From an uncultured Actinomycetota bacterium (GTDB lineage: Bacteria > Actinomycetota > Humimicrobiia > Humimicrobiales > Humimicrobiaceae), in the NCBI GenBank assembly GCA_964478985.1, contig CAYZJW010000003.1, positions 1 through 40,313 on the forward strand: 40,313 nucleotides of DNA, read 5' to 3'. Of this stretch, positions 15,710 to 35,805 are shown in pieces. The position numbers and the translations under genes were made by a program. The notes under the pieces are model-generated. The model made no database searches. It had not been told where the DNA came from and saw nothing but the letters and a program-made list of their open reading frames with translations. Numbering within the stretch: position 1 is the first letter of the stretch; the number at the start of each line of letters is the position of its first letter.

Positions 15710-15713
15710 AACA

Positions 15714-16080
<367 letters not shown>

Positions 16081-24086: not shown

Positions 24087-24119
24087 TTGATTTCAAAATG
24101 GTGGGCCCACCAGGACTTG
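24087..24119. repeat. direct repeat copy 2, overlapping the genuine tRNA 3' end
   Basis: Identical 33-mer. Positions 24099-24119 are the T-arm 3' strand, acceptor 3' strand and CCA of the tRNA. Confidence 0.9.
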
Positions 24120-24175
24120 AACCTGGGACCTCCGCATTATGAGTGCGCTGCTCTAACCAACTGAGCTATGGGCCC
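24099..24175 (-). tRNA. tRNA with CAU anticodon (elongator Met or lysidine-dependent Ile2; CCA encoded)
   Basis: The minus strand folds as a 77-nt cloverleaf: GGGCCCA UA GCUC AGUUGGUUA GAGC A GCGCA CUCAUAA UGCGG AGGUC CCAGG UUCAAGU CCUGG UGGGCCC ACCA. G1-C72 and A31-U39 argue against an initiator. The T-arm and variable loop resemble E. coli ileX. Confidence 0.95.
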
Positions 24176-25072: not shown

Positions 25073-26494
25073 TTATCTCTTGTATTTTATCACTTCAAGG
25101 AAGATATCGACCAGTCTGGGGTCAAACTGGGTGCCGCTGCATCTCTTTATCTCTTCGATCGCTTCCTTCTTTGTCTTTGACTTCCGGTATGGTCTTCCCT
25201 CCCGCATTATCACATAAGAATCTGCCAGCGCCATTATCCTGGAGATAAGGGGAATACTTTTCCCGGCAAGCCCCTGGGGATATCCGCTTCCATCCCAGTG
25301 TTCATGGACAGTCAATATATACTCAGCCACCCTGGAAAGCTGGTTTGAAGACATTGCTATCCTGTAGCCGATCTCGGGATGTTTCTTTATTGCCTGCCAT
25401 TCATTTTCAGAAAGACTTTCCCTTTTATTGAGAACACTGTCAAGAATAGCTACTTTCCCTATATCATGTATGGTAGCCAGGAGTCTCAGCTCATCCTGCC
25501 GGTCCTCAGAAAGCCTTAACCTCTTACCTATTTCCAACACTATCCATTTGAGCATTTTGAAATGGTCTTCGGTCCTTATTTTCTTTTCAAAAAGGGTATT
25601 TTCCAGCGATGCTATTATTGATGCGATGATGCTTTTGCTTTCCTTCAGCTTATGCCGGTACATGTCCTCTTCGGCTTTTCTTATAATACCGGTAAAATCT
25701 TCCTTTACAAAGACCTTGGTAGCTGTCCCCAGGGAGATAGAAAGCGGTATCCTGTTGCCGTCTGTCTTTTCACAATGCTCTTTTATCCTGTCTAATAATT
25801 TCCTGGCATCCTTCTCACCGGTCCTGGGGAGCAGCATGGAAAACTCATCTCCGCCAAAGCGGGCTACTATATCATCGGCACGGCAGCATTTCTTCAACAC
25901 CCTTACACAGCTCTTGAGGAGTGCATCGCCCTCCTGGTGGCCGAAGGCGTCATTTACCAGCTTAAGCCCGTTTACATCAGCCATTATTATGCTTAATGGA
26001 AGCTGCCTTTCGGTATCAAGCCTTTTTACCTCTTCCATATAATATGCCCGGTTATATGCCCTGGTAAGACTGTCGTGAAAAGACAGATAGGTTAATTTTT
26101 CTTCGGCTTTTTTTCTCTTTGATATATCCCGCATTATGCCTTCTATCCTGAGAAGCCTGCCTGTCCTGCCATATACGGGAGATACCGCAGCTTCATACCA
26201 GAAAACTCTTCCTTCCCTATTAAGGACCCTTATCTCGATAGCCTTGCTGAAGTCTGTCTTTTCCCTTTCTATCTGGCTGATTATCTTGAGATCGTCTTTA
26301 TGTATGACCTTTTTAAAAAAATCATGCTCCCGGTAAAAAAGTTCCCGGGTATACCCCAATATTTTACTTGCTGAGGGGCTGATGTATTCAAAAACCTTTT
26401 GAGGCCTGAGCCTGTAAATAAAAACTATATCGGGGGTTCTTTCTATAAGTTCCCGGAAATGCCTGTCTTTCAGGGAATGGTTCTTATGGGGCAA
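25073..26494 (-). CDS. PAS - GGDEF - HD-GYP three-domain c-di-GMP signalling protein
   Basis: N-terminal PAS-like region. RADDIVARFGGDEFSMLL has an intact GGDEF and an RxxD I-site 5 aa upstream. ATIHDIGKVAI plus HEHWDGSGYP form an intact HD-GYP. TTG start with GGAGGG 6 nt upstream. Confidence 0.9.
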   Translation of the reverse strand: MPHKNHSLKDRHFRELIERTPDIVFIYRLRPQKVFEYISPSASKILGYTRELFYREHDFFKKVIHKDDLKIISQIEREKTDFSKAIEIRVLNREGRVFWYEAAVSPVYGRTGRLLRIEGIMRDISKRKKAEEKLTYLSFHDSLTRAYNRAYYMEEVKRLDTERQLPLSIIMADVNGLKLVNDAFGHQEGDALLKSCVRVLKKCCRADDIVARFGGDEFSMLLPRTGEKDARKLLDRIKEHCEKTDGNRIPLSISLGTATKVFVKEDFTGIIRKAEEDMYRHKLKESKSIIASIIASLENTLFEKKIRTEDHFKMLKWIVLEIGKRLRLSEDRQDELRLLATIHDIGKVAILDSVLNKRESLSENEWQAIKKHPEIGYRIAMSSNQLSRVAEYILTVHEHWDGSGYPQGLAGKSIPLISRIMALADSYVIMREGRPYRKSKTKKEAIEEIKRCSGTQFDPRLVDIFLEVIKYKR

Positions 26495-27638: not shown

Positions 27639-29399
27639 TTATCTTTCCCGGCGCCAGGACATAAGTTCATCATATGACATAGTGTTTAGTATATCTTTGG
27701 CCTCCAGGCCCGCCCGCCTGGCTACATCCACCCCCAGCCGGATCATCTCCATATTGCCGGGCCGGTGTGAATCGGTATTTATAGCCAGTTTTGCTCCTGC
27801 TTCCGCAGCTTTGCAGGCATATTCCTCATCCAGGTCCAGCCTCATATAATAGCTGTTTATCTCCAGGGCTTTTCTGTGATCTGCAGCCGCTTCTATCACT
27901 TTTTCCATATCCATAAATATGGGAGCCCTGTTGCCGAAAACTATTCCGGTGGGATGGGCTAAAAGATCAAAGAACCCTTTTTCCAGGGCGCTTACTGCCA
28001 TTAAAGTATTCTGGCGGACAGAATTTAAGAAACTGGAATGCAGGGATGCTATGGCTATATCCATTTTTCTGATAATATCCGGGTCATAATCAAAAACACC
28101 AGGTTTTTTGATATCTATTTCCGAACCCATAAGGATACTTATATCCCTGTATTTTTTCCTGAGAGCGCTGATAAATCTCATCTTCTCCATAAGTCTTTCC
28201 CTGTCCAGGCCGTTTCCGTAATAATTACTCGGGGAATGGTCTGATATGGCAATATACTGGTAGCCCATTTTTCTGGCCGAATCGATCATCTGAGAATAAT
28301 CCATGAGCCCGTCACTCCAGTTTGAATGTATATGGAGGTCGCCCATAATATCGCTGACACTTACCAGGCTCGGCAGCTTTTTTTGGGATGCCCGCAGCAC
28401 TTCGTTTTTTCCTTGTCTTAGCTCCGGAGGTATATGATCCAGCCCCAGAGCATCATATATCCTTTTTTCTGATGCCAGTTCCCGTATAGTGCAGCCGTTT
28501 AAACCAGGCCTGCCTTCTTTGAAAGAATGCTCCTGGAGAGCGGCCAGGTGATCCCTGCTGCCGGTAGTCTTTAAGAGCTGCCAGGCCCAGGTATTTCCGG
28601 CAGCGATTATGATCTCGATGTCAAATTCATATATAGTGCTAAAAAGAGCGCTGATATCCTCCGCTGTCCTTTTTACCGACACCAGCTTTCGCATAAAAGG
28701 ATATGCGGCTATCTTTTTAATAAGAGCCTCGCTTCTTTCCATATCATACCTGTCCCGGTTAAAAACAGGCTGGAGCAAAAGATCTACATCGCCTATGAAA
28801 CTTTTTTTGCGCCTTATGGAACCAGTATATTCTATCCTTTCTACCTCGGATGATCTTTTTAACTGCTCTATGATGATGCCCGCATAGAACTCTGCCGGCC
28901 ACCTGGGAATCATTTTCCTTATGGAATCAAGATATTCTATGGACCGCTTTATCCTTTCTGCAAATAAAGGATTCAGCACATCCTTTCCCAGCTTTGAGGA
29001 AGCAGCAGTACCTGCAGCGTCTCTTTCCATAAAAACGCTTTTCAGGTCTTCCAGGTCCTTTATGGAAAATTCTTTATAGATGGAAAGGACCCTTTTTCTT
29101 CCCATTCCCGTCATCCTTATAAGCCTGACCAGGTCCTGGGAATAGTCTGCAGAAAATCTCCGGTACTTCTCTATTGAGCCATTATCAAGGTATTCAGTGA
29201 TCAGCCCATAACAATAATTGTCTATTCCGCTGGAGCTCCCGGGACTTTTCCCCTTAAGTATTTCCTCTATTATGCCGGGGTCATCCCGCAGGGTCCTGGC
29301 CGCCCTCATAAGCGAAAGCACCGCTTCTTTTCCCCCGGTCTCTGATTTTTGTGCCCCGGCAAGATTGGTAAATATGTCTGCCAGTTTAAGGCTTATCAT
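27639..29399 (-). CDS. family X DNA polymerase with PHP domain, divergent paralogue (PolX-1)
   Basis: GSIRRKKSFIGDVDLLL (dNTP/Asp-x-Asp), FDIEII, and an intact PHP domain (GDLHIHSNWSDG, ISDHS, GSEIDI, SLHS, LAHP, NTDSH). The N-terminal HhH motifs are degenerate compared with 31310-33031. Confidence 0.85.
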   Translation of the reverse strand: MISLKLADIFTNLAGAQKSETGGKEAVLSLMRAARTLRDDPGIIEEILKGKSPGSSSGIDNYCYGLITEYLDNGSIEKYRRFSADYSQDLVRLIRMTGMGRKRVLSIYKEFSIKDLEDLKSVFMERDAAGTAASSKLGKDVLNPLFAERIKRSIEYLDSIRKMIPRWPAEFYAGIIIEQLKRSSEVERIEYTGSIRRKKSFIGDVDLLLQPVFNRDRYDMERSEALIKKIAAYPFMRKLVSVKRTAEDISALFSTIYEFDIEIIIAAGNTWAWQLLKTTGSRDHLAALQEHSFKEGRPGLNGCTIRELASEKRIYDALGLDHIPPELRQGKNEVLRASQKKLPSLVSVSDIMGDLHIHSNWSDGLMDYSQMIDSARKMGYQYIAISDHSPSNYYGNGLDRERLMEKMRFISALRKKYRDISILMGSEIDIKKPGVFDYDPDIIRKMDIAIASLHSSFLNSVRQNTLMAVSALEKGFFDLLAHPTGIVFGNRAPIFMDMEKVIEAAADHRKALEINSYYMRLDLDEEYACKAAEAGAKLAINTDSHRPGNMEMIRLGVDVARRAGLEAKDILNTMSYDELMSWRRER

Positions 29400-29436: not shown

Positions 29437-29454
29437 GCTGGGATTTATCCCAGC
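29437..29454. promoter_or_regulatory. perfect 7-4-7 inverted repeat in the polX-1/pcm divergent region (operator or 5' stem-loop candidate)
   Basis: GCTGGGA-ttta-TCCCAGC. A second 5-bp repeat, CCCTG-ttaaat-CAGGG, lies at 29463-29478. Confidence 0.35.
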
Positions 29455-29479
29455 TGGAATATCCCTGTTAAATCAGGGT

Positions 29480-29488
29480 ATTATAACA
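29480..29488 (-). promoter_or_regulatory. extended -10 promoter element (TGtTATAAT) for polX-1
   Basis: Perfect TGnTATAAT on the minus strand, about 80 nt upstream of the polX-1 ATG at 29399. Confidence 0.45.
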
Positions 29489-29501: not shown

Positions 29502-30167
29502 ATGAAAAAAAACCCGGATCCAGGCACAAATGGTTTCGATCTCTACCGGCAGGCCAGGGAAGACATGGTCAAAAGACAGCTGGAATCCCGAGGGATAAGG
29601 CATCCAGGAGTCCTTGGGGCTATGAGGAAAGTCCCCAGAGAATCATTTGTCCCGGAAGGTCTTCGGGGTTCTGCCTATGAGGACCGCCCCCTGCCCATAG
29701 GTATGGGACAGACCATATCACAGCCCTATATAGTAGCCCTTATGACTGAGTCGCTGGACCTTGATTGCAGCATGGATGTGCTTGAAGTAGGTACAGGTTC
29801 CGGATACCAGACTGCAATACTGGCCGAGCTGTCAAATATGGTATATTCGGTTGAAATAAAGAAAGACCTGTGTGATAAGAATGAAGAAGTCCTAAAAGGT
29901 TATGAAAATATCAGGCTTTCCTGCCATGACGGCAGTAAGGGCTGGGAAAAATATTCCCCCTATGACCGTATACTGGTAACTGCAGCACCGCCTCACATAC
30001 CGGATAAGCTTGTGGAACAGCTTAAGGCAGGCGGCATCATGGTGATACCCACAGGCACATCTACCTGGAGCCAGGAACTTTTAAAAGTGGTAAAATCCGA
30101 TAAGGGGATAAAGAAAATAAAGATATGCGATGTGGCTTTCGTTCCCCTCACTGGAGATACAGGATGA
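29502..30167 (+). CDS. pcm: protein-L-isoaspartate O-methyltransferase
   Basis: VPRESFVPE, PIGMGQTISQPYIVALMTE, VLEVGTGSGYQTAILAEL, ILVTAAPPHIP. There is no SD at the annotated ATG; an internal ATG (MVKRQLE) is an alternative start. Confidence 0.9.
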   Translation: MKKNPDPGTNGFDLYRQAREDMVKRQLESRGIRHPGVLGAMRKVPRESFVPEGLRGSAYEDRPLPIGMGQTISQPYIVALMTESLDLDCSMDVLEVGTGSGYQTAILAELSNMVYSVEIKKDLCDKNEEVLKGYENIRLSCHDGSKGWEKYSPYDRILVTAAPPHIPDKLVEQLKAGGIMVIPTGTSTWSQELLKVVKSDKGIKKIKICDVAFVPLTGDTG

Positions 30168-30218: not shown

Positions 30219-31307
30219 ATGAGAACCGGTACTGTAAACCTGCCCCTGCACGGCGGAAAAGCCCCCAGGTGGCTTTTTAACCATATGAAGGACCTCTCCC
30301 GGGAGATATTGTCATCTATCGTATCCGAATATGGTCCGGAAGAAGTGCTGGACCGTCTATCCGACCCCTTCTGGTTCCAGGCTTTCGGCTGCGTTCTGGG
30401 CTTTGACTGGCATTCCAGCGGAGTGACCACAACCGTTTGCGGTGCCGTTAAGGAAGCGGTAAAGGGCAGGGAAAAGGATTTTGGCCTGTTTGTAGCCGGC
30501 GGAAAAGGCGGCACCTCCAGGAAGACGCCCTCAGAGATAGAGGCTGCCGGCGAGAAGATGGGCCTTGACTTCTCCAGCCTGGTATATAACAGTAAGATTG
30601 TAGCCAAGGTAGACTCCACTGCATTGCAGGATGACTACCAGCTCTATCACCACTGTTTTTTATTTACCCTGAGCGGCAAAAAATGGTCTGTGATCCAGCA
30701 GGGCATGAATGAGTACAACCGTATGGCCAGGAGATACCACTGGTCCAGCAGCGAGATAGAAGATCTTGTATGCGAGCCCCATAAGGCCATATGCTGCGAC
30801 TCCAGCGGTGATGTCATAAACCTGGTAGCCAGGGAAAGCAGCAAAGTCCGCAGCACCATGACCGAAATATCATATCAGAAGCCCCGGCTGCTCCTGGATG
30901 ACCTTAAAAAAATAAAGAAATACCAGGAGGCAAAATACAATATGCCCGCAAGGCATACCATAAACTTAAGCGATGTGGAAGTAAAAAGGCTGGAAAAGAT
31001 CTTTATTTCCACCTATGAGACAAGACCTGAGAATTTTGAAAAGCTTATCTCCCTCAAGGGAATGGGCCCCAAGACTGTAAGGTCGCTTGCCCTGATATCA
31101 GAACTGGTATATGGAGAAAAATATAGCATAAAGGACCCGGTAAGGTTCAGCTTTGCCCATGGGGGAAAGGATGGAATCCCCTACCCGGTGGACCGTGAGA
31201 CCTATACAGCTTCTGTGGATATACTGCATAATGCACTAAGGGAAAGCAGGATAGGCAGGACCGATAAAATAAAAGCCATAAAAAGGCTTTCACATTTTTA
31301 CGGATAA
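30219..31307 (+). CDS. conserved protein of unknown function, DUF763-like, with a C-terminal helix-hairpin-helix motif
   Basis: The N-terminus TGTVNLPLHGGKAPRWLF...FWFQAFGCVLGFDWHSSGVTT matches my memory of DUF763 proteins. LISLKGMGPKTVRSLALISELVYG (nt 31044-31112) fits the HhH consensus. The stop lies 2 nt before the polX ATG. Confidence 0.7.
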   Translation: MRTGTVNLPLHGGKAPRWLFNHMKDLSREILSSIVSEYGPEEVLDRLSDPFWFQAFGCVLGFDWHSSGVTTTVCGAVKEAVKGREKDFGLFVAGGKGGTSRKTPSEIEAAGEKMGLDFSSLVYNSKIVAKVDSTALQDDYQLYHHCFLFTLSGKKWSVIQQGMNEYNRMARRYHWSSSEIEDLVCEPHKAICCDSSGDVINLVARESSKVRSTMTEISYQKPRLLLDDLKKIKKYQEAKYNMPARHTINLSDVEVKRLEKIFISTYETRPENFEKLISLKGMGPKTVRSLALISELVYGEKYSIKDPVRFSFAHGGKDGIPYPVDRETYTASVDILHNALRESRIGRTDKIKAIKRLSHFYG

Positions 31308-31309
31308 TA

Positions 31310-33031
31310 ATGGATAAGAAAGACGTTGTAAGGATACTTGACCAGACTGCTACCCTGCTGGAGCTGGGAGGCGCTGATTTCTTCAAGGTACGGGCCTACA
31401 GGGGAGCATCCAGGGCCCTGGAGTCTTCTGGCATGGAGACTGATATCAACACAAAAGCAAAAGACCTGCAGGCGACAAAAGGCATAGGAAAAAACATTGC
31501 CGGCCATATTGTCGAGCTCATCTCAAACGGTACATTTGCAGAATATGAGCGGCTCAAGGCCTCTACCCCGCCGGGACTTCTGGTCATGCTGAGGATACCT
31601 GGCATGGGCGCCAAAAAGGTTAAATACCTTTTTGATAATCTGGGCATATCCGATATGGAGACACTGGAGCAGGCCTGCCTGGAAAACAGGCTGTCTGTGC
31701 TGCCCGGCTTCGGAAAAAAGACCCAGGATAATATTCTAAAAGGCATACATGCAGTAAAGAGATACCAGCAGAAGTTCCTTTATAGCCAGGTAATAGGCCA
31801 GGCAGAGTTAATACTGGAGAAATTAAGGAAGGGCGGGTCCGTAATAAGGGCCAGCCTGGCAGGAAGTCTGAGGCGGAAGAAGGAGATAATAAAGGACATA
31901 GATATAGTTGCCTCAACCGGTGAGCCGGAAATGGTGATGGAACTCTTTACCGGCCTGGATGATGTCGAGGATGTCATCGCCAGGGGAAGCACCAGATCCA
32001 GCATCAGGCTTGCCAGTGGCATAAATGCAGATATAAGGACGGTAGAGGATTGGCAGTTTCCATATGCCCTGCATCATTTTACCGGCAGCAGGGAGCATAA
32101 TACTGCCATGCGGTCCCTGTCAAAGAAGTCCGGCATAAGGATGAATGAATACGGCCTGTTTAAAGGCAAAGAACTTATTAAATGCAAAAGCGAGAAAGAT
32201 ATTTTCGGGGTATTCGGCATGCAGTATATACCTCCGGAGCTGAGGGAAAATCATGGTGAGGTAGAAGCAGCCCAAAAAGGCCAGCTGCCTGCCCTGGTAG
32301 AGCCGAGCGATATAAAGGGAATAATACACATCCACACCACCTATAGTGACGGTAAGATGACTCTGGAGCAGGCGGCAAGAAAAGCCATGGATATGGGATT
32401 TTCTTATATCGGGATAAGCGAGCACAGCCGTTCCGCCAGATATGCCGGGGGATTGAAAGAAGAAGATATTGATAACTATCTTACCGAGATCGACAGGCTT
32501 AATGAAAAGCTTGAAGGTTTTAGGGTATTTAAAGGCATAGAATCTGATATATTAAATGACGGAAGCCTTGATTATGATGACCGGACACTGGAAAGATTTG
32601 ATTTTGTCATAATTGCCATCCATTCCAATTTCAATATGTCCAAAAATGATATGACAAAAAGGATAATAAAGGCTTTGCAGCATCCCTATGCTTCCATCCT
32701 TGCCCACCCCACCGGAAGGCTGCTTCTTGCCCGCGACCCTTATGAGGTGGATATGGAAAAAATAATAGACGCAGCCGCTCAGAGCAATGTAGACCTGGAG
32801 CTAAACAGCAGCCCCTTCCGCCTGGATCTTGACTGGCGTTATGGCAGATATGCAAAACAAAAGGGCGTAAAGGTCTTTATAGATCCTGATGCCCACACGC
32901 TGGACGGCCTTTATGACTACAGTTTCGGAGTAAATATTGCCCGCAAGGGGTGGCTGGAGGCAAAGGACATCGCCAATACCATGGATGCCGGTAAAATGGC
33001 GGATTATCTGGAAAATAAAAGGAAAGGATAA
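31310..33031 (+). CDS. polX: family X DNA polymerase / 3'-5' exonuclease with PHP domain (canonical PolX)
   Basis: KVRAYRGASRAL; three HhH motifs (TKGIGKNIAGHI, IPGMGAKKVKYL, LPGFGKKTQDNI); GSLRRKKEIIKDIDIV; ADIRTV; HHFTGSREHN. PHP motifs HIHTTYSDG, ISEHS, ESDI, AIHS, LAHP, DPDAH. Confidence 0.9.
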   Translation: MDKKDVVRILDQTATLLELGGADFFKVRAYRGASRALESSGMETDINTKAKDLQATKGIGKNIAGHIVELISNGTFAEYERLKASTPPGLLVMLRIPGMGAKKVKYLFDNLGISDMETLEQACLENRLSVLPGFGKKTQDNILKGIHAVKRYQQKFLYSQVIGQAELILEKLRKGGSVIRASLAGSLRRKKEIIKDIDIVASTGEPEMVMELFTGLDDVEDVIARGSTRSSIRLASGINADIRTVEDWQFPYALHHFTGSREHNTAMRSLSKKSGIRMNEYGLFKGKELIKCKSEKDIFGVFGMQYIPPELRENHGEVEAAQKGQLPALVEPSDIKGIIHIHTTYSDGKMTLEQAARKAMDMGFSYIGISEHSRSARYAGGLKEEDIDNYLTEIDRLNEKLEGFRVFKGIESDILNDGSLDYDDRTLERFDFVIIAIHSNFNMSKNDMTKRIIKALQHPYASILAHPTGRLLLARDPYEVDMEKIIDAAAQSNVDLELNSSPFRLDLDWRYGRYAKQKGVKVFIDPDAHTLDGLYDYSFGVNIARKGWLEAKDIANTMDAGKMADYLENKRKG

Positions 33032-33043
33032 GGAAGAAAGAAA

Positions 33044-33697
33044 ATGAACAATATCTTTAAACCGGCTATAGAAAATATTGACAGGATAGTGAAAACACTG
33101 GAAGACACCTACCCGGATGCCCTCCGTTCCACCCTGGACCATAAGGATGCTTTCCAGCTCCTGGTGTCTACCATACTGGCTGCCCAGAGCACTGATAAGC
33201 TGGTAAATACCATTACCCCGGACCTGTTTGAAAAGTATAAGGGACCACAGGACTTTGCCGATGCCGACCCCGGGGTCATGGAGCAGGATATAAGGAAGAC
33301 TGGATTTTTCCGCAATAAGACAAAAAGCATAATGGGAGCCGCCCGGGAGATAGTAGAGAGTTTTGAAGGCAGTGTACCCGGCAATATGAAGGACCTCCTG
33401 ACCCTTCCCGGAGTGGGAAGAAAGACGGCCAATGTAGTGCTGGGAGAATGCTTTGGAAAACAGGTCATTGTGGTAGACACCCATATGAAGCGGATATCCC
33501 GTCATATAGGGCTTACCGATAATACTGATCCCGATAAGATAGAATCTGACCTGGCAGGGATAATACCGGAAAAGGCCCGTACAAGCTTTTCGCATAAGAT
33601 AGTCCGGCACGGCAGGACCATATGTATAGCCAGGAGGCCGAAATGCAGCGAGTGCCCTATCCTTAAATATTGCCGTTATGGGCAGGAGAATGCCTGA
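33044..33697 (+). CDS. nth: endonuclease III (HhH-GPD DNA glycosylase/AP lyase with 4Fe-4S cluster)
   Basis: LVSTILAAQSTD, LPGVGRKTANVVL, VDTHMKR, and the cluster loop CIARRPKCSECPILKYC. Confidence 0.92.
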   Translation: MNNIFKPAIENIDRIVKTLEDTYPDALRSTLDHKDAFQLLVSTILAAQSTDKLVNTITPDLFEKYKGPQDFADADPGVMEQDIRKTGFFRNKTKSIMGAAREIVESFEGSVPGNMKDLLTLPGVGRKTANVVLGECFGKQVIVVDTHMKRISRHIGLTDNTDPDKIESDLAGIIPEKARTSFSHKIVRHGRTICIARRPKCSECPILKYCRYGQENA

Positions 33698-33734: not shown

Positions 33735-35261
33735 CTATATCCCGCTTATTTTTTCAAAATCCCCTTCCAGGTCCTTGTATAATGACCTGTATACCGCATA
33801 GTATTTGGAATACAGGTCATTAGTCTCAGCATCCGGCTCCGTCTCGGTAACTTCCTTCAGGATACTGCTGCAGGCTTTTCTTACTGAAGGATACAATCCT
33901 GCCCCCACTCCGGCTATTATGGCAGCCCCGTAAGAAGGACCTTCCTCCACATTCAGGGTCACTATAGTGGTGCCGAATATATCGGCAGTGATCTTCCTCC
34001 ACAGCCCTGACCTGGCTCCCCCGCCGAATAGCACTACTTTCTCAGATGATATGCCGGCATCGGCCATAAGGTTAAAGCAGTCATACTGGGAATAGGTTAT
34101 GCCTTCCATAACAGCCCGGGCAAAGTGGGAGCTGTCGTGGACATAGGAAATGCCGAAAAATACTCCCCTGGCATGAGGATCGGCATAGGGGGTCCTCTCC
34201 CCGGAAAGATAGGGTAGAAATATAAGTCCTTCTGATCCTGCAGGAGCTGACTCTGCCTGTTTGTTTAAGAGCTCATACTTGGAAAGGCTGCTGTATCTGG
34301 TTTTTATTTCACCAGATATCCCAAATGTATCATGATACCATTTATAGGAGCCGGCTGCAGATAAGGTGACTCCCATAAGGTGCCAGGCGCCTTCCACGGC
34401 ATGGCAGAATGAATGCAGCCTTCCCGCCGGGTCGTATACCGCCTCATCCGAATGGGCAAATACTACTCCGGAGGTTCCCAGATAGTCAGATATCACTCCT
34501 TCATATACGATACCGGAACCAACTGCCCCTCCGGCCTGGTCCCCGGCCCCTCCGGCAATGGGAGTGCCCTGTATCAGGCCGGTGAGCTTCGCTGCCTCAT
34601 CCGAGACTTTTGATGATATATATGCGGACTCATAGACGGGGGGGAGAAGATCTTTATCGATATCAAGTCCGTCTATTATATCATCCGACCAGGTCCTTTT
34701 TGCTATATCCATAAGGATGGTGCCTGAGGCATCAGATACTTCGGTGGCATAGGCTCCTGAGAGCCTGTAGCGTATATAGTCCTTGGGAAGAAGTATCCTG
34801 GCCACTTTCTTATAGTTCTCCGGCTCATTTTCCCTGAGCCACAATATCTTGGGTGCCGTAAAACCAGTCAGGGCTTTATTATATGACAGCTTTATAAACT
34901 CAGCCTCTCCGCCGAAGGTATCATAAATGGCATCACACTGGGGAGCTGTCCTCTGGTCGCACCAAAGGAGGGCCGGCCTTATTACTTTGCCGTCCCTGTC
35001 CATAAATACCGAACCGTGCATCTGGCCCGATATGCCTATGGCGGCTATGTCAGAGGGGTCTATCCCTGATCCGGAAAGTACTTCCTTTACTGTCTTGACT
35101 GCTGCTTCCCACCACAGGTCCGGATGCTGCTGGGCCCAGCCCGGCCTGGGAGTATCCATATCGTATTCTTCGGTGGATGATGATATAAGTTTACCTTCCT
35201 GGTCTATCAGTATGCATCTTGTTGATGAAGTGCCCGCGTCAAATCCTATAAGATACTGCAT
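33735..35261 (-). CDS. xylB: xylulokinase (FGGY family)
   Basis: By eye it aligns closely with E. coli XylB: GFDAGTSS, GISGQMHGSVFMD, FTAPKILWLRENEP, LLPKDYIRYRLSG, HSFCHA...WHLMGV, FLPYLSGERTP, FGGGARS. Start moved to MQYLIGF (GGAGGAG SD). Confidence 0.85.
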   Translation of the reverse strand: MQYLIGFDAGTSSTRCILIDQEGKLISSSTEEYDMDTPRPGWAQQHPDLWWEAAVKTVKEVLSGSGIDPSDIAAIGISGQMHGSVFMDRDGKVIRPALLWCDQRTAPQCDAIYDTFGGEAEFIKLSYNKALTGFTAPKILWLRENEPENYKKVARILLPKDYIRYRLSGAYATEVSDASGTILMDIAKRTWSDDIIDGLDIDKDLLPPVYESAYISSKVSDEAAKLTGLIQGTPIAGGAGDQAGGAVGSGIVYEGVISDYLGTSGVVFAHSDEAVYDPAGRLHSFCHAVEGAWHLMGVTLSAAGSYKWYHDTFGISGEIKTRYSSLSKYELLNKQAESAPAGSEGLIFLPYLSGERTPYADPHARGVFFGISYVHDSSHFARAVMEGITYSQYDCFNLMADAGISSEKVVLFGGGARSGLWRKITADIFGTTIVTLNVEEGPSYGAAIIAGVGAGLYPSVRKACSSILKEVTETEPDAETNDLYSKYYAVYRSLYKDLEGDFEKISGI

Positions 35262-35388
35262 ATCTCCTCCCCGTCTCACGGCTATATTAATACTTTTATA
35301 TAATCATATAAGAACCAGCAAAAATCCTACTGTCTGCCGCTTATTTAAAAAACCGGCATATCCTGAAGCATTAAAGAAGTTTTGAACC

Positions 35389-35805
35389 TTACATCTCCTT
35401 TGCCAGCGTGGACCTGGCCACAGCGGCATGCTTTACACCTTTTGCCACCTTGAGCCTGGCTTCCAGGTCATATACTTTCTTTATCTTTCCCTTTAACGCT
35501 ATTATCTCCAGGCAGTTGCTGTGGTCAAGGTGCACATGCTGGCTGGATATTATTATGTCATGGTAATCATGCTGTATGCTTACCAGGTTTTCCACCAGAT
35601 CATGGTGGTGATGGTCATATACCATTATTATGGCTCCAGCCACTTCCTCATCTTCATCTTCCCAGGCCGTCTCTACCAGCTCCTTCCGCACCAGGTCCCT
35701 TAAGGCTTCGGACCGGTTCCGGTAACCCTTTTCCCTTACATACCCGTCAAGAGCCGAAAGCAGGTTTTCCTCCATAGATACACCGAACCTTTTTAACTCT
35801 GCCAT
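35389..35805 (-). CDS. nikR: nickel-responsive transcriptional regulator NikR
   Basis: N-terminal ribbon-helix-helix (RFGVSMEENLLSALD...RNRSEALRDLVR). The C-terminal nickel site DHHHHDL...QHVHLDHSNCLEI is nearly superimposable on E. coli NikR (HHHHDL...LHVHINHDDCLEI). Its ATG overlaps the upstream stop (TAATG). Confidence 0.9.
   Translation of the reverse strand: MAELKRFGVSMEENLLSALDGYVREKGYRNRSEALRDLVRKELVETAWEDEDEEVAGAIIMVYDHHHHDLVENLVSIQHDYHDIIISSQHVHLDHSNCLEIIALKGKIKKVYDLEARLKVAKGVKHAAVARSTLAKEM

Follow-up and report, generated by a model that had tools for sequence, protein, structure and literature searches.

The stretch analyzed here, referred to as the window, comprises 40,313 nucleotides (nt) of contig CAYZJW010000003.1 from an uncultured Actinomycetota bacterium (assembly GCA_964478985.1), and the gene under study lies at positions 30219 to 31307 of its forward strand. 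This coding sequence specifies a 362-amino-acid (aa) protein of family DUF763 (PF05559), as judged from the list of open reading frames (ORFs), a full-length Pfam match, and an AlphaFold2 (AF2) model. It starts with ATG, with a Shine-Dalgarno-like AAGGA sequence located 5 to 9 nt upstream, and ends with a TAA codon (31305-31307) that is separated by a spacer of only 2 nt (TA) from the ATG of the next gene at 31310 (junction at 31305-31312, forward strand). An earlier note on this DNA, made from the sequence alone, had described this spacing, and we confirmed it; the geometry is compatible with translational coupling. The downstream gene encodes PolX-2 (31310-33031, forward; 573 aa), a canonical bacterial PolX with a polymerase-beta-like core and a PHP domain, which matched NF006375 with 560 bits (cut-off, 426) and the Pfam families HHH_8, HHH_5, thumb, and PHP. 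It is followed by the gene for endonuclease III (Nth; 33044-33697, forward), a protein of the helix-hairpin-helix (HhH)-GPD type with a 4Fe-4S loop, which scored 238 bits with TIGR01083 (cut-off, 212) and matched PF00730, PF00633, and PF10576. Both neighbors exceeded the cut-offs of their models, and the proposed adjacency of DUF763 to PolX-2 and Nth was borne out. The first gene of this same-strand run encodes a protein-L-isoaspartate O-methyltransferase (PCMT; 29502-30167, forward; PF01135, E = 2.6e-59). A divergent PolX paralogue, PolX-1 (27639-29399, reverse), is transcribed away from the PCMT-DUF763-PolX-2-Nth run.

The assignment of the protein to DUF763 was verified by a search with hidden Markov models and is unambiguous: it matched PF05559 with 453.4 bits (E = 5.4e-136; gathering threshold, 35.5) over profile positions 1 to 319 of 319. 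We take this family to correspond to COG1415. NCBIfam contained no model for the protein, and no PDB chain matched it in sequence. The family had been described as lacking an assigned function, and this also held, as we found no function in the open literature, where the sole mention, in a 2005 Pfam domain census, lists it as unknown. A search of 5.8 billion proteins gave at least 8,000 matches; among the matches listed, the annotation was only DUF763 or hypothetical, and identities to the window protein reached 96%. A profile search of 1.84 billion cluster representatives yielded 4,089 clusters at 50% identity, 1,082 of them with E ≤ 1e-30, and the best 150 of the 4,089 had lengths of approximately 200 to 444 aa and no additional domains; a typical member measures about 360 to 440 aa. 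Gene fusions of the Rosetta-stone type were absent from the 360 homologues and 150 representatives listed, except for one DUF3072 tail.

Bacterial members were found in many phyla and genera, among them Actinomycetota, Chloroflexota (including Dehalococcoidia), Thermodesulfobacteriota, Acidobacteriota, Brocadia, Moorella, and Desulfofundulus, as well as on Rhizobium and Sinorhizobium megaplasmids and in Legionella, Nitrosomonas, and Xanthomonas. Archaea, including thermophiles, also carry the gene. A homologue search started from the Rhizobium copy returned only sequences of at least 94% identity and added no diversity. Three proteobacterial proteins, namely, those of Rhizobium etli p42f, a Legionella adelaidensis plasmid, and Sinorhizobium meliloti pSymB (loci L081-L083), are 411 to 416 aa long, with approximately 50 aa more at the C-terminus, and the rhizobial copies sit on megaplasmids or chromids (230 PLSDB records). 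The window protein shares its motifs, length class, and single-domain architecture with the family, and no feature sets it apart. Its locus, in contrast, differs from the family at large, because the operon with PolX and Nth is peculiar to one clade.

Conservation was assessed over 71 representatives, each 35 to 52% identical to the window protein. There were 11 invariant positions and about 38 more that were conserved in at least 90% of the representatives, mainly Gly, His, Asp, Lys, Arg, Gln, and Ser. The conserved set includes H11, D63-W-x-S-S-G-x-T-T, G-G-K96-G, D132, Q137-D138, Y143, H145, Q160-Q161-G, R171-R172-Y-H174, G283, L290, D306-P307, and G-G-K317-D-G, a pattern that looks like that of an enzyme active site. 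All family motifs (LPLH, DWHSSGxTT, GGKG, AKVD...QD, YHH, QQGMN, ARRYHW, EPH, GxGPxT, DP, and HGGKDG) are present in the window protein. The N-terminal loop LPLHGGKAPRW (residues 8-18; 30240-30272, forward) contains the invariant L10 and P16 as well as H11 and G13, which are conserved in at least 90%. It is followed by the motif D63-W-H-S-S-G-x-T-T (30405-30434, forward), with S67 and G68 invariant, whose loop appears phosphate- or anion-binding-like, and by a glycine-lysine loop, G94-G-K-G-G (30498-30512, forward), at the end of the predicted strand 90-96, in which G94 and G95 are invariant and K96 and G97 are conserved in at least 90%. The alpha/beta core contributes A-K-V-D132, Q137-D138, Y143-H-H145, Q160-Q161-G-M-N, and A-R171-R172-Y-H174-W (30603-30743, forward), whereas the C-terminal part carries D306-P307, strand 308-311, and the loop A-H-G-G-K317-D-G (31134-31175, forward), with G315 invariant and D306, P307, G316, K317, and D318 conserved in at least 90%.

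The earlier note had singled out several blocks rich in His, Cys, and Asp as conserved-looking. All peptides quoted there occur in the protein; besides the N-terminal loop, these are FDWHSSG (residues 62-68), YHHCF (143-147), VCEPHKAICCDSSGD (184-198), and SFAHGGKDG (311-319). Several of the His and Asp positions are conserved, whereas the cysteines are local to the window protein: C58, C74, C192, and C193 are not conserved family-wide, so an Fe-S or zinc site does not count among the traits of DUF763. The C-terminal half is basic, with a pI of 9.8 in the window protein and a family median of 9.1.

The HhH-like segment is, by its conservation, a real and family-wide feature. It consists of helix 273-277, the hairpin L-K-G-M-G at 279-283, and helix 284-296 (31035-31106, forward), modeled at a predicted local distance difference test (pLDDT) score of 85 to 93. 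The family signature reads L-L-x-x-x-G-h-G-P-x-T-h-R-A-L, and conservation was high at G281 (63/71), G283 (68/71), R288 (63/71), and L290 (68/71). The segment had thus been recognized correctly, with a 3-nt slip in its end: residues 276 to 299 correspond to 31044-31115 and not to 31044-31112. A homologue that is 70% identical to the window protein (P0042) matched the HHH profile with 26.3 bits, over its cut-off of 24. HhH motifs nearly always touch nucleic-acid backbones.

We compared this segment with that of the HhH-GPD glycosylases. In an hhalign comparison with an Nth alignment, DUF763 residues 259 to 303 fell on Nth residues 101 to 142, over 42 columns only and with a probability of 36%. 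Extending this alignment by eye without gaps placed G299 on the Nth loop glycine and D306 on the catalytic aspartate of Nth (D145 here). K285 occupies the position of the Nth catalytic lysine, which in the family is Lys in 23, Ser in 15, and Ala in 11 of the 71 representatives. D306 follows G283 by 23 residues; the distance from hairpin glycine to catalytic aspartate in HhH-GPD enzymes is 20 to 22. DUF763 resembles Nth, MutY, OGG1, and AlkA in having one G-h-G HhH and a later conserved Asp, and the window protein resembles Nth in the local profile-profile alignment and in the Lys at the catalytic-Lys position. In contrast, DUF763 lacks the 4Fe-4S loop, and its large conserved alpha/beta core is absent from the HhH-GPD enzymes. 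PF00730 gave no match to the window protein even at E ≤ 10, a Foldseek search against the PDB returned no glycosylase, and hence no match to their two-domain all-alpha fold around the HhH, although the HhH region was modeled confidently, and the model has a strand instead of a helix after D306. Membership in HhH-GPD was rejected on these grounds, and the resemblance serves as a mechanistic lead only. PolX, as known from Bacillus subtilis and Thermus thermophilus, likewise has an HhH-type element for the DNA backbone, and in the window a PolX is encoded in the same operon; DUF763 differs in that it has no polymerase-beta or PHP similarity, no fusion to PolX among the 360 homologues and 150 representatives listed, and a linkage that is clade-specific.

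A first AF2 model, based on 53 close homologues, was poor (pLDDT 67), and its Foldseek search was uninformative. The second, for which the proteobacterial branch was added (147 sequences), reached a pLDDT of 83.3 and a predicted template modeling score of 0.83. In it, residues 17-88 form a helical bundle at the N-terminus, strands 90-96, 141-150, 156-164, 169-176, and 189-192 belong to a central alpha/beta core, and residues 205-361 make up a helical region at the C-terminus. The pLDDT dropped below 50 only at residues 1-12 and 315-321, which correspond to the conserved Gly-Lys loops LPLHGGK and HGGKDG, and the model suggests that these are mobile active-site loops. The fold search that had been proposed as a check revealed nothing significant in either the PDB (best E = 0.9) or BFVD (best E = 0.58). 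Judged from the model, the DUF763 fold is therefore without a characterized relative in these two libraries, AlphaFold DB not being included.

Two resemblances were followed and discarded. RidA/YjgF/UK114 gave a marginal profile match to PDB sequences (E = 0.035; residues 84-153, including the GG loop), which we judged spurious because helix 119-135 is predicted where RidA has a strand and Foldseek gave no RidA match. As to an ATP- or NAD-dependent ligase or another covalent nucleotidyltransferase, only G-K317-D-G recalls the KxDG motif I, and ligases were matched neither in Pfam nor among PDB sequences nor by Foldseek.

Gene order was analyzed in 80 bacterial loci (one per species, 52 to 83% identical to the window protein), of which ±8 kb was scanned by tblastn, and in 80 separate archaeal loci, giving 160 loci in total; they are denoted by L numbers. 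Among the 80 bacterial loci, PolX and Nth accompany DUF763 only in the closest relatives, L001-L004 and L007; with the additional Pfam-labeled contigs L085-L088, these form one clade, the window's own Actinomycetota-like lineage, to which the linkage is limited. The block in L085-L088 reads radical SAM / PolX-1 (reverse) / PCMT / [EEP] / DUF763 / PolX-2 / Nth / NikR, EEP denoting an endonuclease/exonuclease/phosphatase protein. The most persistent neighbor of DUF763 in this clade is PolX-1, and the most persistent one on the same strand is PCMT, which lies 5' of DUF763 in most clade loci. The arrangement varies in detail: L006 has the divergent PolX-1 alone, L084 has PolX-1, PCMT, and DUF763, and in L001 Nth directly abuts DUF763 without PolX-2 between them. 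At the DUF763/PolX-2 junction we observed an 8-nt overlap in L085, a 29-nt gap in L087, and, from tblastn coordinates, overlaps of about 5 nt in L002, L003, and L007. Such overlapping or 2-nt junctions speak for genuine co-expression in this lineage.

The explanation that we tentatively put forward, as a serious possibility that falls short of being probable, is that DUF763 is a stand-alone enzyme that is guided to nucleic acid by its HhH and was recruited to a base-excision-repair operon in this lineage. The HhH in the C-terminal helical half would grip the phosphate backbone and feed a strand that bears a lesion or ends in a blocked terminus into a polar pocket. This pocket would be formed by the alpha/beta-core residues H11, D63/S66/S67, K96, D132, D138, H145, Q160/Q161, R171/R172/H174, and D306, and the two mobile Gly-Lys loops (LPLHGGK and HGGKDG) would close over it. 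In this lineage only, DUF763 would have been taken into the same-strand run PCMT-DUF763-PolX-Nth. It would probably be co-transcribed and translationally coupled with PolX, and hence made together with Nth and PolX, and would probably feed into or help short-patch base-excision repair. We infer that the substrate is DNA, that a catalytic pocket exists, and that the protein is tied to base-excision repair.

Nth is a glycosylase and lyase. For PolX, AP-endonuclease, 3'-diesterase, and 3'-phosphatase functions are assigned to the PHP domain and gap filling to the enzyme (PMC6616362). With the activities of Nth on the one side and the end cleaning and gap filling of PolX on the other, the operon partners therefore make up a coherent base-excision-repair module. 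The points that we count in favor of the proposed role are the full-length DUF763 match, the conserved polar and glycine positions, the family-wide HhH and its alignment with that of Nth, the basic C-terminal half, the tight PolX-2 and Nth junctions, and a downstream link to a Cas4-like protein in Dehalococcoidia.

A considerable number of results weigh against this role. In the window protein, the HhH remained below threshold both for HHH (PF00633; 15.7 bits, cut-off 24, E = 0.014) and for HHH_5 (PF14520; 17.3 bits, cut-off 27, E = 0.007), and neither fold nor profile searches gave a match to a DNA enzyme, be it a glycosylase, a nuclease, or a ligase or kinase as had been suggested. Neither PolX nor Nth was found within ±8 kb in the 80 archaeal and 73 other bacterial loci, and the annotations of seven loci from proteobacteria and Brocadia showed neither gene. 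L005, L006, and L084 also lack PolX-2 and Nth beside DUF763. The clade has moreover kept unrelated genes on the flanks (radical SAM, NikR, and methyltransferase), in a syntenic block of about 10 kb, so the adjacency is indistinguishable from inherited synteny. A Pfam census of neighbors had maxima of only 3/69 at position +1, 6/73 at position -1 (PCMT), and 3/114 at positions ±2, and a rough tally indicated that DNA-metabolism neighbors are about as frequent as genome-wide. Furthermore, no LexA box of the Cheo, actinobacterial, gamma, or alpha type was present near the window operon, and no SOS box was found upstream of the Rhizobium, Sinorhizobium, and Legionella copies; with these operators not found, membership in the SOS/LexA regulon was rejected.

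The earlier note had argued, by guilt by association, that DUF763 works with PolX and Nth, and had named a lack of enrichment of DNA-repair neighbors across genomes as one of the results that would refute it. There was no such enrichment in the 160 loci, the gene order is confined to one clade, and the absence of a conserved context removes the main argument offered for a repair role. The idea that DUF763 acts in DNA repair is thereby weakened, not refuted, because a scattered genomic context is typical of stand-alone repair enzymes. By analogy, Ogt, AlkB, photolyases, and UDG families resemble DUF763 in their patchy distribution, mostly monocistronic genes, variable neighbors, and high conservation, whereas known folds and chemistry exist for those families only.

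The same gene neighborhoods are compatible with a stand-alone enzyme that works in the metabolism of small molecules or proteins, in which the HhH-like element would be structural or bind a phosphate ligand and the adjacency to PolX and Nth would be inherited gene order. We consider this possible but somewhat unlikely. Besides the missing enrichment of DNA-related neighbors in the 160 loci and the synteny of the entire 10-kb block in the clade, it is favored by neighbors such as isocitrate/isopropylmalate dehydrogenase, hexapeptide transferases, flavodoxin-like and NfeD/stomatin proteins, QRPTase, and CTP-transferase-like proteins, and by PCMT, a protein-repair enzyme, as the most persistent same-strand neighbor in the clade. 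The Gly-rich Lys loops and DWHSSGxTT would suit a nucleotide or a phospho-sugar equally well. Against it stand the strong conservation of the HhH signature, the tight or overlapping PolX-2 or Nth junctions in several relatives together with the abutment of Nth in L001, and, independently, the close linkage with a Cas4-like nuclease in Dehalococcoidia.

A bolder version of the repair proposal, which we regard as unlikely, is that DUF763 founds a class of new-fold DNA-repair enzymes common to Bacteria and Archaea. The HhH would then dock DNA, a new His/Asp/Lys/Arg active site would excise lesions or process strand termini, and the pathway would have its first genomic hint in the PCMT-DUF763-PolX-Nth operon.

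Less likely again is an action on RNA (processing or modification of tRNA or rRNA, or end healing), with the HhH binding RNA and the protein serving as a housekeeping accessory of Archaea and Bacteria. The broad distribution over both domains and the very high conservation would agree with this, as would the gene's position divergent to Pop5 and near proteasome alpha in six archaeal loci and occasional neighbors that are rRNA/RNA methyltransferases or pseudouridine synthases. However, these RNA-related neighbors are on the opposite strand and in few loci, no RNA-enzyme fold or profile matched, and the patchy distribution, with copies on rhizobial megaplasmids and several archaea missing from the 2005 species list, is unlike that of core RNA-processing factors. 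Most doubtful of all is a cryptic glycosylase or AP-lyase that would carry an HhH-Gly-Asp motif on a different scaffold and add lesion specificity to the PolX/Nth module, which would be the most specific form of the role proposed above: the alignment with Nth, the G283-D306 spacing, and the Lys/Ser alternation at K285, which mirrors the split between bifunctional and monofunctional glycosylases, speak for it, but the alignment is short and of low probability, neither PF00730 nor a Foldseek glycosylase was matched, a strand takes the place of the helix after D306, and the invariant residues are mostly located in the N-terminal and central domains, distant in sequence from the HhH-Asp motif.

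Outside the clade, DUF763 has no constant company. Clustering of 1,055 neighbor ORFs revealed no partner in more than 8 loci, the top ones being PCMT (8) and PolX (6), which stem from one and the same clade; we rejected PCMT as a partner of the family at large, as it was present in 8/80 bacterial loci, mostly of one clade, and in 0/80 archaeal loci. In the Rhizobium, Sinorhizobium, and Legionella plasmid copies, DUF763 stands alone behind its own intergenic region with unrelated neighbors, and it is likewise a lone gene among unrelated ones on Nitrosomonas-like, other proteobacterial, and Brocadia contigs. On pSymB, UdgX and topoisomerase IB are located 3 to 8 kb from DUF763, and LigA and RmuC lie 5 to 7 kb from it in Legionella; both proximities are probably coincidental. 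In the 80 archaeal loci, neighbors include NfeD/stomatin, Pop5, proteasome alpha, a cytidylyltransferase-like protein, and SerK, with no PolX, Nth, or PCMT. In six of these loci (e.g., L097:7566-7925, reverse, and L096:1512-2291, reverse), DUF763 is divergent to Pop5/Rpp14, with proteasome alpha beyond, a flank that we take for the edge of the archaeal cluster of exosome, RNase P, and proteasome genes.

Several nuclease genes were noticed near DUF763. In a Dehalococcoidia subgroup, a Cas4-like PD-(D/E)XK protein of 440 to 453 aa is encoded 3' of DUF763 (L036:9059-10417, L068:7567-8901, L037:9286-10602, L043:8397-9719, and L069:9966-11303), with direct abutment in L036 and L068. This protein matched PDDEXK_1/Cas4 weakly, carries two clusters of Cys resembling those of Cas4 (CPWFGRQCDYSQVCDC and CPSWMCSYCDYKLEC), and was assigned to no PDB or NCBIfam entry. 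In archaea, a short XPF of 218 aa (ERCC4 and HhH2) is convergent to DUF763 at a distance of about 66 nt (L160:9140-9796, reverse) and recurs in three related loci; all of these belong to one lineage, and the XPF gene lies on the strand opposite to DUF763. As a general link, both the Cas4-like and the XPF neighbors were rejected, each being confined to a single lineage. In some clade members, though not in the window, the EEP protein of about 495 aa is encoded between PCMT and DUF763 on the opposite strand (L085:4304-5791, reverse; L007:6386-7876; and L002), its best NCBIfam match being weak and sphingomyelinase-like. In the clade block, RadC and a weak LigD_N-like ORF lie no more than about 6 kb from DUF763 (L087:12286-12579, L087:1277-1981, and L084:1414-2145), which gives it the look of a repair island in this lineage only.

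The two PolX paralogues of the window lie on either side of DUF763, and by eye the DxD and HxH motifs are kept in both. PolX-1 scored 314 bits with NF006375, under the cut-off of 426; its PHP domain was strong, its palm and thumb were weak, and HHH_8 gave no clear match. Its persistence beside DUF763 may point to subfunctionalization, for example, as a mainly nucleolytic PolX. The divergent region between PolX-1 and PCMT spans 102 nt. An alignment of this region revealed a -10-like block, TAAATCAGGGTATTATA (29469-29485, forward), about 17 nt 5' of the PCMT start and common to the clade, which is probably the operon promoter. The region also contains a perfect palindrome, GCTGGGAT-TT-ATCCCAGC, at 29437-29454 and a second one, CCCTG-TTAAAT-CAGGG, at 29463-29478. 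A conserved operator was rejected, as neither palindrome is kept in relatives and only TAAATCAGGGTATTATA is shared; both could be strain-specific operators or a terminator-like hairpin. Rfam revealed no riboswitch or other element near the operon.

Farther away in the window, a radical-SAM gene is located beyond PolX-1, and ORF translations indicated a PAS/GGDEF/HD-GYP-like signaling protein (25073-26494, reverse), an FGGY sugar kinase (33735-35279, reverse), and a NikR-like regulator (35389-35805, reverse); the NikR and methyltransferase genes downstream of Nth belong to the conserved synteny. The window also contains a class A RNase P RNA (302 bits; 15713-16079, reverse) and a tRNA-Met (CAT; 24099-24175, reverse), and their presence identifies it as bacterial chromosomal DNA. 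PADLOC gave no match for defense systems, PHROGs nothing under E = 0.09, and a tblastn search of 50,697 phage records no DUF763 homologue; an origin in a defense system or phage was rejected accordingly.

The gene in the window is a new member of a catalogued family and not a new kind of element. What is added here is evidence that DUF763 has no solved structural relative, that its HhH and not its cysteines are conserved, and that its linkage to PolX and Nth is lineage-specific. DUF763 is among the larger conserved families of no known function, and a conserved HhH without any solved relative recommends it to structural genomics and enzymology as a well-defined target. A role in repair is plausible but speculative. 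If DUF763 does not act in repair, the locus is a caution that clade-level synteny with repair genes is no evidence of function. If it is a repair enzyme, it would represent a new catalytic scaffold for base-excision or end-processing repair, which would explain the presence of the gene in rhizobia, Legionella, Xanthomonas, anammox bacteria, Dehalococcoidia, and many archaea.

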